Assembly (NCBI GenBank): GCA_000004695.1
Contig: CM000152.2
Coordinates: 5,824,001-5,888,000 of the forward strand
Reading direction: 5' to 3'
DNA: 64,000 nt
Source of the DNA: Dictyostelium discoideum
Taxonomy: Eukaryota
Positions 37,527-46,597 of this stretch are shown piece after piece. Below the pieces are notes generated by a model, which saw only the letters and a program-made list of their open reading frames with translations, made no database searches and was not told where the DNA came from. Position numbers and translations under genes: made by a program. Positions within the stretch are counted from its first letter, which is position 1. Each line of letters opens with the position of its first letter.

Positions 37527-37726
37527 TGTGTGTTATTATTAATTTATTGGTTTTTATGAATATGAAAAAAAAATAATAGTGGTCTGTGTGTGTTTAAATA
37601 TAAAAAAATTTCATTTTTAATTGAATAAAAAATAAAAAAAAAAATAAAAAAAAAAAATAAATAATTTTAAATAAATTTAATTTTTTAAATTATTATTATT
37701 ATTGAATTATATTTATTTATTTTGAA

Positions 37727-37765
37727 TGTTGTAGGGAATTTTCAATAAAATTTCACTACACAGCG
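37727..37765. repeat. Left arm of a perfect 39-bp inverted repeat (tgttgtagggaattttcaataaaatttcactacacagcg).
   Basis: The exact reverse complement recurs at 38982..39020. Neither flank extends the match. Confidence 0.8.
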
Positions 37766-39633: not shown

Positions 39634-41572
39634 AAAAAATACATAAAATAAATTATTTCTCAAATTGTAAAAAAAAAAGATTCACATTTTAAATTTGCAA
39701 CACAAATGAAATAGGTTGTAAATTTCACTGCCTTTTTTATTCTTTTGTTTATTCAACACTACTATTTTATTATTTAGTTTTTTTTAATTGTTTTTTTAAT
39801 ATCAAATTAATTTTTCATTCCTCAAAAAATATTAAATTTATAATTCCTTCAGGATCAATACAAATACCATTTGAAGATGGAAGATGAACCACTTTCTCCA
39901 TCACACATTCTCGATACGTTGGTGAATAATAGTAATTTTAAAAAAGATTTTAATAATGACACAGCATTAGTGATTTAGAATTTTTAGCAATTGATGGTAA
40001 AGATGAAATAAAAATAAATAAAGATACTAAAATTTTATAAAAGTTAACTTTTGGGTACAATGAAAAGAGTGAATTAAGAATTCTTTTTTTTTGATAATTC
40101 AACAGACATTTTTGCTGATGCATGAAATTGTGTGATTAATTGGTCAACTGATTCTCTTTCATATATGTTAATTGATGATTCTTGTGTTGGAAAATACATT
40201 TCGTCAATAATTTTAAATGGTGGTGAGCGAGGTGATATAATTTCAAAAATTATTCAAATTGTTGAAAACCATTCATCTTTTATAAATGATTTTTATTCAT
40301 CTGGCAAAGAAATTGATAGTAGTAATATGATAAACTGTGTTAAATTATTGGCATATCAATTTGGTTCAATTCAAGGTGGAATAGATTCCAAAATTGTTAT
40401 TCAAAAATATAGATACAAGAACTGGAACCAATTGGTATATTTTAAACCAACTGGTAATATTAAAATTTTAAATGTCAATTAAATCAATCAAAAGGTTTTC
40501 AATTGGGATGGTTTTACAAATAAAGATAGTCAAGGGTATTTTTTAATTGGATCATCATATCTTGTAAAATAATGATATTGACAAGATAAAGAAATTAAAA
40601 CAAATAGAGAAATTATAAAAAAAAGAATATAATATACGAAGAAGATACTCGAGATTATGAAGATATCATTGATCCAGAAAACATAATTCAAGATGAAAAG
40701 GATCAAGATTATGATTATGATTAAATTACTGAAGAATCTAATTTTGAAGAAAATCAAATTTAATAAATAAATAAAAAAAATTATGATATACAACAATGAT
40801 TTGGTTTTAAATATATTGTTATTATATTTTGGACTATTGTCACATATGTAATATTATCGATTATCTAAACCTCGATATAAATTTAATAAACTCCAAATGT
40901 AAAATATACAGATAAAAAATTGAATTTATAAACAGGTAATAAAATATGGGATAAACAGGAAATTATATTAAGATCAAGTTCATTTATATAAATATTTTAA
41001 AATATGGAAATCATGACATTCCACTACGAATATGTGAGCTAACAATGTTATGAATTTGGTGAACGATAATCCTCTCCCATCACCGCTGAAAACTATATTG
41101 TCATTACTAATATTGTTCATTATTACTATTATTTATGTTTTATTTTACCTAATTATTTTTTTTTTTTTTATTTTTATTTTTTTTTTATTTTTTAAATTTA
41201 TTATTACGCACGATATTTGTTTTGATCAACTGCTATGTCACCAAATGTAATAACCACTGTTAATCTATTAATTACAGAATTATGTTATTAAGGTCTAAAC
41301 TTACTAAATGAATTACACACTACAAAGATTATGTTTTATAAATATGATGAATGATCGACCACTTTATTTAATGTTATTTTATGTGTATTTATACTCTTAT
41401 GTTTTATGCTAGCTAATCATTACTCGTTGCAATAGAACCTTCTAGAAAGCATGTTGATTCATTAAAGATATTTATTGATTACTTGAAAACCTTACGAAAC
41501 ATCGTAACCCTAACTTAACTATGTACGAAACCATGTTTTTTTTTTTTTTTTTTTTTGAATGTACGAAACCAT

Positions 41573-41897
41573 TTTTTTTTTTTTTGAATTGGATAACGCA
41601 ATTATTATTTGCTTCTCCTTGAGATGCTAGATCTCATTTTATTTTTTTTTTTTTTTTACAGGGTCTTTTTGATTAAAACATCTTTTTTGTCCAAACTTTT
41701 TTCTAAATCTTTTTTTATTTTATCGTCTGGTTCGTGATTGATGTTTATGACGTATTTGAATTGTTTTTTTTTTAATTGAGTTTTATCCACAATTTCGCTT
41801 ATTTTTTGTAGGCATTTGTGTTGCTTAATATTTGTGGTGTTGTTTGTGATTTTCATTTTATTTTCTTTCTATCTTTTTTATTTTTCTGATTAACTTG

Positions 41898-41939
<42 letters not shown>

Positions 41940-43645
41940 TTATAGAAAGTACTGAGTGAATTATTGTATTTTTTGAGATGTTTAGGAAGTTCTATTGCGG
42001 GTGTTGATGATGATTTGTGACACCCCTTGTCCTGTTTTATCAATTGGTGCGTGGTGTGTTATTTTGTTTTTATATTGTTGATTTATTGAGTAAATTTTAT
42101 TTGTTTTTATATTTGTTTCAGTTAGAAGTGCTGCGTCCAGCTTGTTGTTGTCTAAAACGGTGTTTATTATGCTGGCAGATTGGATGGTATTGGATCCTTG
42201 GACGTTCCAAACACCTATTCTTATTGTGTTTTTCTTTATAGTTTTATTTGGGGTAGATTTTTATCTACCTTTTGAAGTTTCTGGTTTATTTTGTCTTCTA
42301 ACTGATCTTTACTTTGTTCATTGTGTTGTTGGTCTTGTGTGTTTGTGGGGTTTTTTGATTTATTGATTTGTTTTAGAATTTCCTTGTTGAAGTTGTCTAT
42401 ATCTTCATCCATTTTTGTTTTTATGCTTTTTTGTCCATATTCACCCAATTTTGGTTTGACTGGTGTTTTGTTGGTCTTGTTTGTTTTGTCTTGTTGTTTC
42501 TTTTTTGGTGTGTTTAACAATTTACTTGGTGAATCGATAATTTTCGATGGTGTACCATAGGTTGGGCTGAAACTCATGATATGTTTTATTGGAGAGGAGA
42601 AGAACCATTGATTTGAAGGGATTGAAAGTGGGAATTCTATTTTTCTTATTGCATCAGTGTTTGGGCTGGTGAAGTCGAAGATATCATTTGCCTCTCTAAG
42701 TTTTTCTTCCGTTGTTAGTCCCTTTGTTTCGCCGTGTTGTTTTATTGGTGTATTGTATGGAGATGGTGGTTCGATAGGTTTTTCTGATTTTGTTTTAATT
42801 TCTTGATTGTTTATCGATTGGGTATTGATCTCATTCTCTATTCTTGTTAGTTCATCTACGTTTTCTAGTGATGCTTCTATTACCTTTTGAGCTGTATCAT
42901 CTAGGGCCATAAATGTTTTATCATTAGATGAGGATGTGATTGGTGGGATAATGATTGTTCTTTTTCCTTGTTTTGGTATTTGTTCTGATGTAGATTGTGG
43001 TTGTTGTTCATCTGATTGTTTTTTATTTTTGTTTTCTTCTTGATTTTCTGGTAATGAGGTTTGATCTCTCCATCCTTTGTTGGAGTGTCCAATTAATGTT
43101 AGATTGTCTAGTTCAATGATAGTGTCAAATTCTTCTACGACTCTTTTCACTGTTTTGATAATTAGAGTTTCGCCTTTAATTTCTGATTTAATTAGTTTAC
43201 ATCCTTCATTTTCTATTACCCATTCTATTTCATTGTGGTATTTATACCAATCAAAATCTCTGCATCTATTTTTTGGTCTTATAGTGGTTATAAATTGTCC
43301 TTTTAATTCTGCATCAAACATATTTACAAAATAGATTACTGTACTAATACTGTCTGTGAGAATTTTGAATGTATTATTACTTTTGATTAAAACATCTTTT
43401 TTGTCCAAACTTTTTTCTAAATCTTTTTTTATTTTATCGTCTGGTTCGTGATTGATGTTTATGACGTATTTGAATTGTTTTTTTTTTAATTGAGTTTTAT
43501 CCACAATTTCGCTTATTTTTTGTAGGCATTTGTGTTGCTTAATATTTGTGGTGTTGTTTGTGATTTTCATTTTATTTTCTTTCTATCTTTTTTATTTTTC
43601 TTTAAAAAGTTAAAAATCTGGAAATTTTCTAATTAACTTGGTTCC

Positions 43646-43689
<44 letters not shown>

Positions 43690-43955
43690 TCTTTTTTATA
43701 TGAAAAATGAAATAATCAAAAAAAGAGATTGTTGTTGTTGTTTGTTTTTTTCGATCTGATTATTTTTTGCTTTTTTTTTGAAAATTTTGCTACGCAAAAT
43801 TCTCAAAACGAAACAAATAATAAATTACAATAAAGTAAAAAGATGGCTTTTTAAAATAGTTTATTTATTTATTTATTTGTTTTTTAAGTCTTTTTTATAT
43901 GAAAAATGAAATAATCAAAAAAAGAGATTGTTGTTGTTGTTTGTTTTTTTCGATC
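41573..43955 (-). mobile_element. TRE5-A (DRE) non-LTR retrotransposon, ORF2-deleted form (TRE5-A.2-like). Element 5' end lies 52 bp upstream of tRNA-Val. Flanked by 16-bp target-site duplication gaatgtacgaaaccat.
   Basis: Minus-strand order: two tandem A-module copies (43689..43758 and 43878..43950 are near-identical); B-module; intact ORF1 (43570..42236); about 280 nt ending in the pre-3'-UTR sequence (…cgcaatagaacttcctaaacatctcaaaaaatacaataattcactcagtactttctataaata) with ORF2 missing; oligo(A); a 3' B-module copy including the first 66 codons of ORF1 (41856..41659); then the C-module terminus (…agaccctgt(A)n taaaatgagatctagcatctcaaggagaagcaaataataattgcgttatccaattc) and the final oligo(A) at 41573..41584. 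TSD copies at 41557..41572 and 43957..43972. Module assignments follow published TRE5-A architecture as recalled. Confidence 0.8.
42236..43570 (-). CDS. TRE5-A ORF1 protein (444 aa).
   Basis: Intact ORF MKITNNTTNIKQHKCLQKISEIVDKTQLKKKQFKYVININHEPDDKIKK…. The same N-terminal 60-66 aa recur at 41656..41856 and 45082..45264 as part of the 3' B-module copies of the two elements. Confidence 0.8.
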   Translation of the reverse strand: MKITNNTTNIKQHKCLQKISEIVDKTQLKKKQFKYVININHEPDDKIKKDLEKSLDKKDVLIKSNNTFKILTDSISTVIYFVNMFDAELKGQFITTIRPKNRCRDFDWYKYHNEIEWVIENEGCKLIKSEIKGETLIIKTVKRVVEEFDTIIELDNLTLIGHSNKGWRDQTSLPENQEENKNKKQSDEQQPQSTSEQIPKQGKRTIIIPPITSSSNDKTFMALDDTAQKVIEASLENVDELTRIENEINTQSINNQEIKTKSEKPIEPPSPYNTPIKQHGETKGLTTEEKLREANDIFDFTSPNTDAIRKIEFPLSIPSNQWFFSSPIKHIMSFSPTYGTPSKIIDSPSKLLNTPKKKQQDKTNKTNKTPVKPKLGEYGQKSIKTKMDEDIDNFNKEILKQINKSKNPTNTQDQQHNEQSKDQLEDKINQKLQKVDKNLPQIKL

Positions 43956-44007
43956 TCGAATGTACGAAACCATGTACTATGATTCATCACAAAAAAAATA
44001 TCAATAT

Positions 44008-44081
44008 GTTCGGATGGTGTAGTCGGTTATCACGAATCCTTAACACGGATTAGGTCGTGGGTTCGATTCCCGCTCTGAATA
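44008..44081 (+). tRNA. tRNA-Val (anticodon AAC).
   Basis: Cloverleaf: acceptor GTTCGGA/TCTGAAT+A. A-box GGTGTAGTCGG. Anticodon stem AATCC/GGATT with loop TTAACAC (U33, AAC, A37). T-arm GTGGG-TTCGATT-CCCGC (B-box GGTTCGATTCC). Terminator TTCTTTTT immediately 3'. Confidence 0.85.
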
Positions 44082-44113
44082 CTTCTTTTTAAAGAACCGA
44101 TTATAGATCGCAT

Positions 44114-44123
44114 GTTCGATTCC
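44114..44123 (+). promoter_or_regulatory. External B-box (ex-B, GTTCGATTCC) 33 bp downstream of the tRNA-Val at 44008.
   Basis: Exact B-box copy within gatcgcatgttcgattccctatttt. Extra downstream B-boxes are a known Dictyostelium tRNA-gene feature. Confidence 0.6.
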
Positions 44124-44880
44124 CTATTTTGATTATGGTGTTAAAAAATACAAAAAAAAAAAAAAAGAAAAGAAAAAAAAATTATGTAATAATAAAATTT
44201 GCTTTTATAAAATTTTTAATTAATTTAAAATAAACAAATTAAAATATATACATTTAATTTTTTTTTTTTTTTATTTTTAATTTTGAAAATTTCATTTCAT
44301 TTTATTTTTCTACAAATAAAATTAAATTTTTATTTACAATTTATTTGTTACTGTAATCCTGAATAACAATAAATAGGGGAAAAAATAATTTTTTAATTTG
44401 AATAGTCACTATTTTATTTATTTTGAAAAAAAAACTTAAATTTTTGTAATTTTGATAGTCAATAAATTGAGTGAATTAGTATATTAATAAACAATATCGA
44501 ATATTAAAACATCAAAAGAAAATAAATAAATAAATATCATTATCGTTAAAAAATAAAATTGTGTACAAATAAACGAGTATTTCAAATAATATTATTAAGA
44601 GATAAATTTTATATAAGTTTATTTTTAAAGTGTTCAAAGGGTCACATATTGTATTGATATACAAAATATTATAAATATTCCATATAAGTTGGAGTACGAG
44701 GATCTTTACAAATGTAATAAAGTTTGTTTTTAAAATTGAGAATAATAAATAATTCCAAATGGAATAATTTTATAAATTATGATTATATTTAATTAATACA
44801 TGTTTAATTATTATCTTTATATATTAGATTATCTCTTAATATTGTGTATTACTCGAGTTGATTGAATAAACTTCTAAAAT

Positions 44881-45013
44881 AAGTGTCTTTTTTTTGAATT
44901 GGATAACGCAATTATTAGTTGCTTCTCCTTGAGATGCTAGATCTCATTTTATTTTTAATTTTTTTTTTTATTTTTTTTTTTTACAGGGTCTCTAAAAGAG
45001 GGGTTAGTTTACT

Positions 45014-45052
<39 letters not shown>

Positions 45053-45340
45053 CGAATTTTGAATTGTATTATAACTTTTGATTAAAACATCTTTTTTGTC
45101 CAAATTTTTTCTAAATCTTTATTTATTTTATCGTCTGGTTCGTGATTGATGTTTATGACGTATTTGAATTGTTTTTTTTTTAATTGAGTTTTATCCACAA
45201 TTTCGCTTATTTTTTGTAGGCATTTGTGTTGCTTAATATTTGTGGTGTTGTTTGTGATTTTCATTTTATTTTCTTTCTATTTTTTATATTTTTCTTTAAA
45301 AAGTTAAAAATCTGGAAATTTTCTGATTAACTTGGGTTCC

Positions 45341-45403
<63 letters not shown>

Positions 45404-46080
45404 TTATGGAGAGTACTGAGTGAATTATTGTATTTTTTGAGATGTTTGGGAAGTGCTATTGCGTGAAGAGGTGAGTTCCATTGTCTGCTAAATTTTAATA
45501 GCTTTAGCGAGATTAATGAGTCTAATTTATTTTGTTCTTCTGGCCGTTGCTTTGATTTGATTCTTAATGTTTTGTTTATAACCGCTTGTGTCCTGTCCCA
45601 TGGAGCTCTTTGTGTTTTAATTAGTTCACGTATGACTTGTTGTCTATGAATTACTATTTCTATTTCATCGTGGATGAGTTTGTTTCTTTTGTGCCAAATT
45701 TTTTCGAATATAATAGCTATTAAATTGGCTATTAGTGCAATTTGTAGATGGTTTAAAATCTTAACATTCCAGGTGTGAGTGGTGTGTCCACACTTGATTA
45801 AGGTGTAGTTGAAGATTTCTTGTGTGTTTTTGATGTGGGCTTTGCAGTTGAAGAATATATGTTCTGAAGTCTCATCTTCCCCACACTGTTTGGCATGTTG
45901 CATATTTTTGGTAGTGCTTTCAGTGTGTATCTCCATAATAGGTCTCTACCTTTCATGTTTATTATTTTTTTAATTTCTATAAATGGAAGGTGTTTGCTAT
46001 TGATTTTGGTCATTATTTCTTTTTGGCCAGGAGTTGGTATGAATTTGTTGTGTTCTGGAGATTGGGTTGTCATCCTCGTA
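44881..46080 (-). mobile_element. TRE5-A, 5'-truncated within ORF2: ORF2 3' end, 3' B-module copy, C-module and oligo(A). Flanked by 16-bp TSD taaaataagtgtcttt. Truncated 5' end lies 47 bp upstream of the second tRNA-Val.
   Basis: TSD copies at 44865..44880 and 46081..46096. Minus-strand order: ORF2 C-terminal region with frameshift (46080..45400, zinc-knuckle-like …CGEDETSEHIFFNCKAH…); oligo(A) 45345..45400; B-module tail plus ORF1 first 60 codons (45264..45082); oligo(A); C-module terminus identical to that in element 1 (…gcgttatccaattc); terminal (A)9. Confidence 0.75.
45400..46080 (-). pseudogene. Truncated, frameshifted 3' portion of TRE5-A ORF2 (reverse-transcriptase C-terminal cysteine-rich region).
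   Basis: Two overlapping ORFs in different frames (45798..46073 and 45400..45936). C-x-C…H…C knuckle (…LPKICNMP… and …KQCGEDETSEHIFFNCKAHIK…) typical of the LINE ORF2 C-terminus. No start codon; the element is 5'-truncated. Confidence 0.7.
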
Positions 46081-46127
46081 TAAAATAAGTGTCTTTATTT
46101 ATTTCTTTAAAAAAAAAATATCAATAT

Positions 46128-46201
46128 GTTCGGATGGTGTAGTCGGTTATCACGAATCCTTAACACGGATTAGGTCGTGGGTTCGATTCCCGCTCTGAAT
46201 A
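46128..46201 (+). tRNA. tRNA-Val (anticodon AAC), second copy identical to 44008..44081.
   Basis: Identical 74-nt sequence. Same 17-bp upstream flank (aaaaaaaatatcaatat). Terminator TTCTTTTT. Same downstream spacer plus ex-B box. Confidence 0.85.
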
Positions 46202-46233
46202 CTTCTTTTTAAAGAACCTAATATAGATCGCAT

Positions 46234-46243
46234 GTTCGATTCC
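46234..46243 (+). promoter_or_regulatory. External B-box (GTTCGATTCC) 33 bp downstream of the second tRNA-Val.
   Basis: Same context as at 44114. Confidence 0.6.
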
Positions 46244-46256
46244 CTATTTATTCTTA

Positions 46257-46289
46257 TTAGGTCGTGGGTTCGATTCCCGCTCTGAATAC
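46257..46289 (+). other. Orphan tRNA-Val 3' half (nt 42-74, ttaggtcgtgggttcgattcccgctctgaatac) followed by a T-run. A third B-box-like GGGTTCGATTCC lies at about 46320..46331.
   Basis: Exact match to the 3' 33 nt of the tRNA at 46128. No 5' half, so non-functional as a tRNA. It does supply another B-box. Confidence 0.6.
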
Positions 46290-46597
46290 TTATTTTTCAA
46301 ATTTAAATTGTTAAATAGTGGGTTCGATTCCGATCATGTAAAAAAAACCTCTCTTCGCATCAAAAAACCAAATTATTTTTTTTAGAAATTTATCTTTTTT
46401 TTTAATTTTTTTTAATTAAAAAAAAAAATAACCCTAAAAAAACCAAGAATAAAATAGATTAGAAAACAAAAAAAAACTTTTTAAAAAAAAAAAATTGTGA
46501 GAATAAGAAATAATTTAGAAAATAAAAACAAATATTAATAAATATCACCAAGAGTCTATTTTTATTTTTTTATTTTTCATTAAAAAAACAATAAACG

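Follow-up and report, generated by a model that had tools for sequence, protein, structure and literature searches.

Upstream of a tRNA-Val(AAC) gene of Dictyostelium discoideum lies an element of about 2.4 kb that carries one long open reading frame (ORF) between repeated modules. It is contained in a stretch of 64,000 nt (GCA_000004695.1, contig CM000152.2, positions 5,824,001 to 5,888,000, forward strand; called here the window, with positions counted from its first letter) whose G+C content is 21%. The question raised by this locus is whether the element belongs to a known class of deleted retrotransposons or is a deletion derivative peculiar to this site. The features described below indicate that the minus-strand element is very probably a complete copy of TRE5-A.2 (formerly DREb), a non-autonomous deletion derivative of TRE5-A, a tRNA-gene-targeted non-long terminal repeat retrotransposon. 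The copy and its ORF1 are already known, being part of the AX4 reference genome, where the ORF1 is catalogued and the window probably belongs to chromosome 3, and the TRE5-A.2 subfamily was reportedly first described in 1992. The significance of the analysis beyond correct annotation is therefore small, and the only mildly new points are a TC + A21 sequence, probably an insertion footprint, at the distal end of the element and a set of bases at which two assemblies disagree.

Assignment of the element to TRE5-A.2

TRE5-A integrates 47 ± 3 bp upstream of tRNA genes in a strict orientation, with the element's 5' end toward the 5' end of the gene (PMC5391098). The distance and the orientation found here agree with this rule: the element is located upstream of the tRNA-Val(AAC) gene in head-to-head arrangement, and 50 nt (44007..43958) separate the two. 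Without its A14 tail the element is 2371 nt long (43956..41586, minus strand). Its limits, 43956/7 and 41572, almost coincide with the span 41573..43955 that had been proposed in an earlier reading of the same letters (the sequence-only reading).

The modules of TRE5-A have been described as an A-module of 200 bp, a B-module of 290 bp that is duplicated at the 3' end, a terminal C-module and an oligo(A) tail (PMC3159450). Correspondingly, the window element was found to contain an A-module of 199 nt, a B-module of 290 nt with a copy at the 3' end, a remnant of the C-module and A14. The protein encoded by ORF1 is 97% identical to the main AX4 ORF1 cluster, and a Pfam domain search with it gave no match, as the literature would predict. 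A target-site duplication of 15-16 bp together with the 3' oligo(A) is in keeping with target-primed reverse transcription. For the 3' 54 nt of the C-module three stems were predicted (-11.3 kcal/mol, z = -3.1). A hairpin at this place is required for retrotransposition, as tested by mutating the four nucleotides T15, C26, A35 and C38 (PMC3159450); counted from the 3' end, all four are present in the window copy and are paired in the predicted fold as published.

The subfamily TRE5-A.2 is defined by the layout AB-ORF1-BC, a large deletion in ORF2 and a 72-bp deletion at the B/C boundary, so that the C-module is retained with its 3'-terminal 87 bp (PMC3159450). On the minus strand the window element has the layout AB-ORF1-BC. 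To locate the ORF2 deletion, the element was compared with two ORF2-bearing relatives from D. cf. discoideum (loci L001 and L011). In L011 ORF2 is intact and encodes 1142 amino acids (aa), with a Pfam RVT_1 match at residues 495-736 and a weak match to the endonuclease (APE) domain at about 11-190. The ORF2 remnant of the window copy aligns to residues 1-79 of this protein with 85% identity. In the alignments with the two relatives similarity breaks off at 42001; from 41999 onward the sequence matches the ORF2 3' ends of 5'-truncated D. discoideum copies. The missing part corresponds to codons ~80-1121, with a length of ~3.13 kb when measured on L011 and of ~3.19 kb when measured on L001. A second, independent estimate, based on the published length of TRE5-A.1 (5647 nt, PMC3159450), gives 5647 - 2371 - 72 - 37 nt, or ~3.17 kb, in agreement with these measurements. 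Thus the proposal of the sequence-only reading that about 3 kb of ORF2 is absent holds (~3.1-3.2 kb). Its description of ORF1 as running almost directly into the terminal ~70 nt was wrong by 236 nt, which is the distance between the ORF1 stop codon (42236-42238) and the junction (42001/41999) and represents ORF2 codons 1-79; only then do the last 64 nt of ORF2 follow. What remains of ORF2 is thus codons 1-79 and the last ~20 of ~1142; the element has lost the reverse transcriptase (RT) region and the greater part of the APE domain. At the junction the reading frame changes, and a stop codon is reached 5 codons further on. The remnant gave no Pfam match, and the intact ORF2 with APE, RT and zinc finger that characterizes TRE5-A.1 is absent. 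The remnant also has no ATG, the ORF1 stop being followed to give TAAAG, versus TAATG in the relative.

With regard to this start site, the ATG of ORF2 and the stop codon of ORF1 overlap in D. cf. discoideum (TAATG in L001, 8175-8179; the corresponding site in L011 is 9728-9731), and all three D. discoideum TRE5-A.2 copies read TAAAG (42234-42238 in the window), leaving no ORF2 start.

For the B/C deletion a second TRE5-A copy in the window, 5'-truncated and of A.1 type, served as internal reference. The alignment to this copy has a gap of 84 columns, in a stretch that includes a variable A-run, and thus agrees only approximately with the published 72 bp; the retained part of the C-module is 81 nt long, compared with the published ~87 bp. 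The 3' B-module is also shortened: it has two internal deletions of ~8 and 29 nt and has lost 21 nt from its 3' end. Its segment 41667-41887 is 100% identical to 43381-43601 of the 5' B-module (221 nt).

An independent copy with the same structure was found at another locus. This copy (L003, 5909-8278) lies at a tRNA-Thr(AGT) gene on a different contig of another D. discoideum assembly (GCA_054883475.1), has a target-site duplication of its own, ATCGAATTCATGAA, and aligns colinearly with 2378 nt of the window element, with 99.1% identity. Common to the two copies are the junction in ORF2, the B/C deletion, the two deletions of 8 and 29 nt in the 3' B-module and the arrangement of the 5' untranslated region (UTR) as an A-module plus a partial A-module. 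The sequence across the deletion is CACCCGTAATAG in L003 versus CACCCGCAATAG in the window element, and the junction word CATCATCAACACCCG is identical in both. Since L003 has the same structures, the deletions and the 5' UTR are family traits, neither local nor new, and the sharing of these rearrangements by unrelated loci implies that the deleted form itself was copied. The presence of the same ORF2 junction at a different tRNA gene favours A.2 over a novel deletion, and the earlier suggestion of a TRE5-A.2-type derivative with an open ORF1 and no functional ORF2 is borne out by all published defining features that could be tested here. The 79 ORF2 codons and the 5' UTR of 1.36 modules, being common to independent copies, would accordingly describe the TRE5-A.2 master element.

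The same element was also recovered from the orthologous locus in GCA_054883475.1 (L006), which aligns colinearly with 20.6 kb of the window, with 99.56% identity, and contains the same junction, the same flanks and the same series of A14, target-site duplication, TC, A21 and repeated duplication sequence. This colinearity extends through the element with its junctions and through the triple repeat. It makes it highly improbable that the repeat-rich reference was misassembled here into a collapsed or chimeric TRE5-A, even if the concentration of assembly mismatches inside TRE5-A copies points to some repeat-related error in one of the assemblies. Equally hard to credit is the alternative that a full-length TRE5-A.1 was inserted here and lost its ORF2 later by a local deletion, giving a novel, locus-specific derivative. 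In its favour, a short microhomology (CAC/C) may be present at the junction, as in a local deletion, and the comparison with A.2 is made with genomic copies instead of a curated A.2 reference. Nevertheless, the four rearrangements common to L003, at an unrelated tRNA-Thr locus with its own target-site duplication, must have been inherited from a deleted master, the two loci differing in their flanks as well as in their tRNA genes.

Some points tell against this assignment. The breakpoints were mapped on the ORF2 of a sister species (~78-85% nucleotide identity) and on 5'-truncated D. discoideum copies, with a resolution of ~3 nt. The mismatch between the 84-nt and the 72-nt B/C gap is attributed here to the long, variable A-run of the reference copy. 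Six missense codons are private to the window ORF1 (see below), so that an intact ORF1 may not equal a functional one. Mobilization in trans, promoter activity and TFIIIB contact would apply to the window copy by extension from the literature.

Other searches were negative within their scope. No exact protein match was obtained for the window ORF1 or the main AX4 ORF1 cluster, nor for a flanking ORF of 603 aa, in an index that apparently lacks AX4. Searching proteins with the ORF2 5' remnant returned two short D. cf. discoideum fragments and no full-length AX4 ORF2, and the ORF2 C-terminus matched only fragmentary gene models. No full-length TRE5-A.1 was found in five D. discoideum loci (L002, L004, L005, L009 and L010), all of which hold 5'-truncated copies of A.1 type. 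Exact pattern scans gave no match for an ORF2-start word in metagenome and prokaryotic-genome collections, nor for a C-module word in metagenome, prokaryotic-genome and viral collections.

Table 1. Features of the element and of its flanks, in window positions
Feature	Position	Strand	Basis
tRNA-Val(AAC) gene, integration landmark	44008..44082	+	ARAGORN
tRNA-proximal target-site duplication, (A)TGGTTTCGTACATTC	43958..43973	-	pairs with 41557-41572
Extra G at the 5' junction, outside the 199-nt A-module period	43957..43957	-	junction ...ATTC g AGATCG versus ...AATC AGATCG between the two A-modules (A/A')
Complete A-module (199 nt), putative plus-strand promoter and 5' UTR	43758..43956	-	199-nt repeat period; size compared with the published 200 bp; same in L003
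Partial second A-module (first 71-72 nt)	43686..43757	-	repeat comparison
Internal A36 run at the boundary of the A-modules and the B-module	43650..43685	-	sequence reading; similar run before the L003 B-module
5' B-module (290 nt), holds the ORF1 start codon at 43570	43360..43649	-	extent of duplication into 3' B-modules equals the published 290 bp (PMC3159450)
ORF1, 444 aa, uninterrupted	42236..43570	-	ORF list, protein comparison
ORF2 5' remnant, codons 1-79, N-terminal part of the APE endonuclease	42001..42236	-	alignment to ORF2-bearing relatives
ORF2 deletion junction	41999..42001	-	L001/L011 alignments end at 42001; ORF2 3'-end homology from 41999; same in L003 and L006
Last 64 nt of ORF2, stop codon included	41936..41999	-	alignment to the second copy in the window, L002 and L005
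A-run before the 3' B-module	41900..41935	-	sequence reading, alignment
3' B-module, shortened	41667..41899	-	repeat comparison, alignment to the second copy
C-module remnant (81 nt), predicted three-stem 3' hairpin	41586..41666	-	alignment to the second copy, fold prediction
Oligo(A) tail, 13-14 nt	41572..41585	-	sequence reading
Distal target-site duplication, (A)TGGTTTCGTACATTC	41557..41572	-	repeat comparison; identical in L006
TC + A21	41536..41558	-	sequence reading; its TC lies within the later duplication
Outer repeat CATGGTTTCGTACAT	41521..41535	-	pairs with 43960-43974

The 5' UTR and ORF1

The sequence-only reading had placed two near-identical A-module copies around a unique spacer and had spoken of tandem A-modules. 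Two repeats are indeed present near the positions given: the 71-nt segments 43886-43956 and 43687-43757 are 100% identical and lie 199 nt apart. The supposed spacer proved to belong to the first A-module, of whose 199 nt it makes up the other 128. The term tandem therefore describes the repeated sequence correctly and its extent poorly, since only 1.36 modules are present and this is the standard 5' UTR of the family, found also in the independent copy L003. Because L003 and the window copy begin within 7 nt of the same position, the repeat unit must start at AGATCG..., and it follows that the 5' UTR consists of one full module and a 5' fragment of a second. The opposite arrangement, in which the first A-module would be 5'-truncated and the second full, was rejected because of the same coincidence of the two start points. 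The abstract of Marschalek et al. 1992 is said to describe proximal ends with "one or multiple A modules".

The single G at 43957, which falls outside the module period, may be a cap-derived residue; extra G residues that are thought to derive from the cap have been reported on complete TRE5-A copies (PMC3159450).

The open frame of 444 aa that had been noted for ORF1 is present without interruption, and its product is 100% identical to the D. discoideum AX4 hypothetical protein DDB_G0282507. Relative to L003, 8 codons differ by 12 nucleotide differences in all; two of the changes are synonymous, and the 6 missense codons are confined to two tight patches. In these, aa 102-104 read RCR versus MYT and aa 111-113 read YHN versus SLT, with five nucleotide changes at each of 43260-43266 and 43232-43239, ten altogether. 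The consensus MYT/SLT was found in all other AX4 ORF1 clusters and in the sister-species protein, this stretch being conserved between species, and the orthologous copy in GCA_054883475.1 carries the consensus at both patches.

The patches may be real AX4 mutations, an error in the reference or the result of consensus-polishing of the newer assembly. That the RCR and YHN codons are genuine mutations which inactivated or altered ORF1, the copy being a decaying relic, appears possible though rather doubtful. The changes are found both in the window and in the deposited AX4 protein, they fall within a stretch conserved between species, and outside repeats the two assemblies differ by merely ~6 substitutions in 17 kb. 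The orthologous copy of the second assembly and the independent L003, on the other hand, both show the consensus, and ten changes crowded into two patches of 7-8 nt, in 2.4 kb that are otherwise near-identical, point rather to a local error of sequencing or assembly; beside that reading it has to be noted that the newer assembly was possibly polished toward the ORF1 consensus. Inside TRE5-A copies, mismatches between the assemblies are concentrated in the two ORF1 patches and the B-module of the second copy in the window. Possible repeat-associated errors in one of the two assemblies would concern users of DDB_G0282507 as ORF1 reference.

It had also been suggested to determine the ratio of nonsynonymous to synonymous substitution rates (dN/dS) of ORF1 against other copies. 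Compared with the sister-species copy the ratio is 0.22, which shows that the TRE5-A family as a whole is under constraint. The value obtained with L003 (0.33, Nei-Gojobori) is not meaningful with 12 differences in 8 codons. The inference of recent activity from the intact ORF1 is loosely supported: outside the patches the copies differ by only ~0.2%, and against it stands that the insertion is common to the two D. discoideum assemblies.

Target-site repeats and a probable earlier insertion

The 13-mer TGGTTTCGTACAT occurs three times in the window, each time at a flank of the element, where 0 occurrences would be expected by chance. On the tRNA side the repeat copy reads CATGGTTTCGTACAT-TC, followed by the extra G and by the element. 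On the distal side the order is A14 of the element, TGGTTTCGTACAT-TC, A21, CATGGTTTCGTACAT and unique DNA (that is, A14-TGGTTTCGTACATTC-A21-CATGGTTTCGTACAT, 41521-41574). The 5' and the inner 3' repeat copies end in ...ACATTC, whereas the outer copy reads ...ACAT followed by AG. The C-module ends in ...AATTC.

The simplest account of this arrangement would involve two steps. In the older event a TRE5-A-type insertion, truncated to its last 2 nt (TC) and tail, would have generated the 15-bp duplication 48 nt from the tRNA-Val gene. Later the TRE5-A.2 element would have been inserted 2 nt away, duplicating (A)TGGTTTCGTACATTC. Two insertions 2 nt apart, a minimal TRE-TRE tandem, explain the three copies of the target repeat. 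Both insertion positions (48 and 50 nt from the tRNA gene) are within the published window of 47 ± 3 bp, and TRE-TRE tandems at already-targeted tRNA genes have been documented (PMC5391098). L003 is a further example, in which the older partner is longer. TC + A21 is probably the footprint of a TRE5-A integration that was aborted after 2 nt and poly(A), the site being re-used 2 nt away by TRE5-A.2. This account would take CATGGTTTCGTACATTC and the A-run as non-ancestral. It has against it that, at the level of sequence, it is built on 2 nt (TC) and on the geometry of the repeats.

The series A14, duplication, TC, A21, duplication might alternatively go back to one insertion, after which a 38-nt unit made up of an A-run and the target-site duplication was doubled by slippage or duplicated in tandem. 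The two 3' repeat copies lie 38 nt apart and share 27 nt at 96% identity, and A-runs are prone to slippage. A simple duplication predicts identical units, however, and the two units found here are unlike: the leading C is absent from the inner copy, and TC follows this copy but not the outer one; the same TC recurs in the repeat copy at the 5' junction. Because slippage leaves this shared TC unexplained, it is the weaker alternative, and we consider it unlikely. Two successive insertions need no extra mutations, and both would have taken place inside the known integration window (PMC5391098).

If two insertions did occur, the same tRNA gene was targeted again within 2 nt, and one partner of the tandem is reduced to TC and poly(A). 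Should insertions of near-zero length be common, A-tracts with 13-16-bp direct repeats ~47 bp upstream of tRNA genes would record TRE5-A attacks. Repeat annotation would then miss such footprints, and TRE5-A integration rates would be underestimated.

Mobilization, related elements and neighbouring copies

From studies of the family, the A-module promotes transcription, the ORF1 protein contacts TFIIIB, ORF2 protein acts in trans and the hairpin is the 3' recognition element (PMC3159450, PMC5391098, PMC5633606); TRE5-A.2 is mobilized in trans by the ORF2 protein of TRE5-A.1 (PMC3159450, PMC5391098). By analogy, the A-module of the window element would drive a plus-strand RNA, and the ORF1 protein made from it would contact TFIIIB on a tRNA gene and thereby direct integration. 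Endonuclease and reverse transcriptase would be supplied in trans by a full-length TRE5-A.1, whose enzymes would recognize the C-module hairpin and the poly(A) tail, and the RNA would be copied into DNA at a nick ~47-50 bp upstream of the tRNA gene by target-primed reverse transcription. The window copy itself would have arisen by retrotransposition of the RNA of an already deleted master and not by deletion in place. Judged from its sequence, the window copy appears to hold all parts needed in cis, namely the A-module, an open ORF1, the hairpin and the tail.

Compared with published TRE5-A.2 (DREb), the window copy shows the same size (~2.4 kb), AB-ORF1-BC layout, ORF2 and B/C deletions, position and orientation at the tRNA gene, ORF1, hairpin and junctions. 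Nothing structural sets it apart; its peculiarities are the six private missense codons of ORF1 and its abutting TC + A21. TRE5-A.1 (DREa), the autonomous element of 5.65 kb, shares the A-, B- and C-modules, ORF1, the target preference and the 3' hairpin, but its B/C junction is complete and it keeps an ORF2 of ~1140 codons (APE, RT, zinc finger). The engineered reporter TRE5-Absr resembles TRE5-A.2 in having ORF1 and no ORF2, in being moved in trans by endogenous TRE5-A.1 and in forming tandems at tRNA genes already occupied; it differs in being synthetic and in carrying a resistance cassette, and in a later version the actin6 promoter replaces the A-module (PMC3159450, PMC5391098).

A comparable dependence is seen in mammals. 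HAL1 ("half-L1") elements are derivatives of long interspersed elements that have ORF1, lack ORF2 and rely on the ORF2 protein of an autonomous partner, but they belong to an unrelated lineage, have an unrelated ORF1 and are not known to target tRNA genes.

The second TRE5-A copy of the window, used above as reference, is located 2 kb away (44889-46080, minus strand) and comprises the 3' end of ORF2, a full B-module and a full C-module. It sits 47 nt upstream of a second tRNA-Val(AAC) gene (46128-46202), has the target-site duplication AGACACTTATTTTA and carries a frameshift near 45890 in the zinc-finger region. In its B-module 18 substitutions were found between the window (45073-45339) and L006 (15966-16231), the window being near the family consensus and L006 diverged, with unique flanks that are near-identical between the two assemblies. 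The discordance points to gene conversion or to mis-assembly of the repeat in one of them.

The two tRNA-Val genes are embedded in blocks of 139 nt (43991-44129 and 46111-46249) that are 98.6% identical. Each block contains a B-box-like GTTCGATTCCC ~30 nt downstream of the gene, and a 39-nt copy of the tRNA 3' end with a further GGGTTCGATTCC follows the second gene (46250-46332). These sequences resemble the additional B boxes that have been described for tRNA genes of Dictyostelium.

At the L003 locus the TRE5-A.2 copy abuts an older 5'-truncated copy of A.1 type (5909-9254), forming a TRE-TRE tandem, and its C-module lacks 5 nt (CCAAT) immediately before the tail. An A-module-like match in the window at 37608-37750 was rejected as AT-rich low-complexity DNA. 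In L001 an A-module-like and then a C-module-like stretch (12465-12592) is found downstream of the B-C end of the D. cf. discoideum TRE5-A-like element; it resembles the "BC.ABC" distal ends that the early DRE literature reportedly described.

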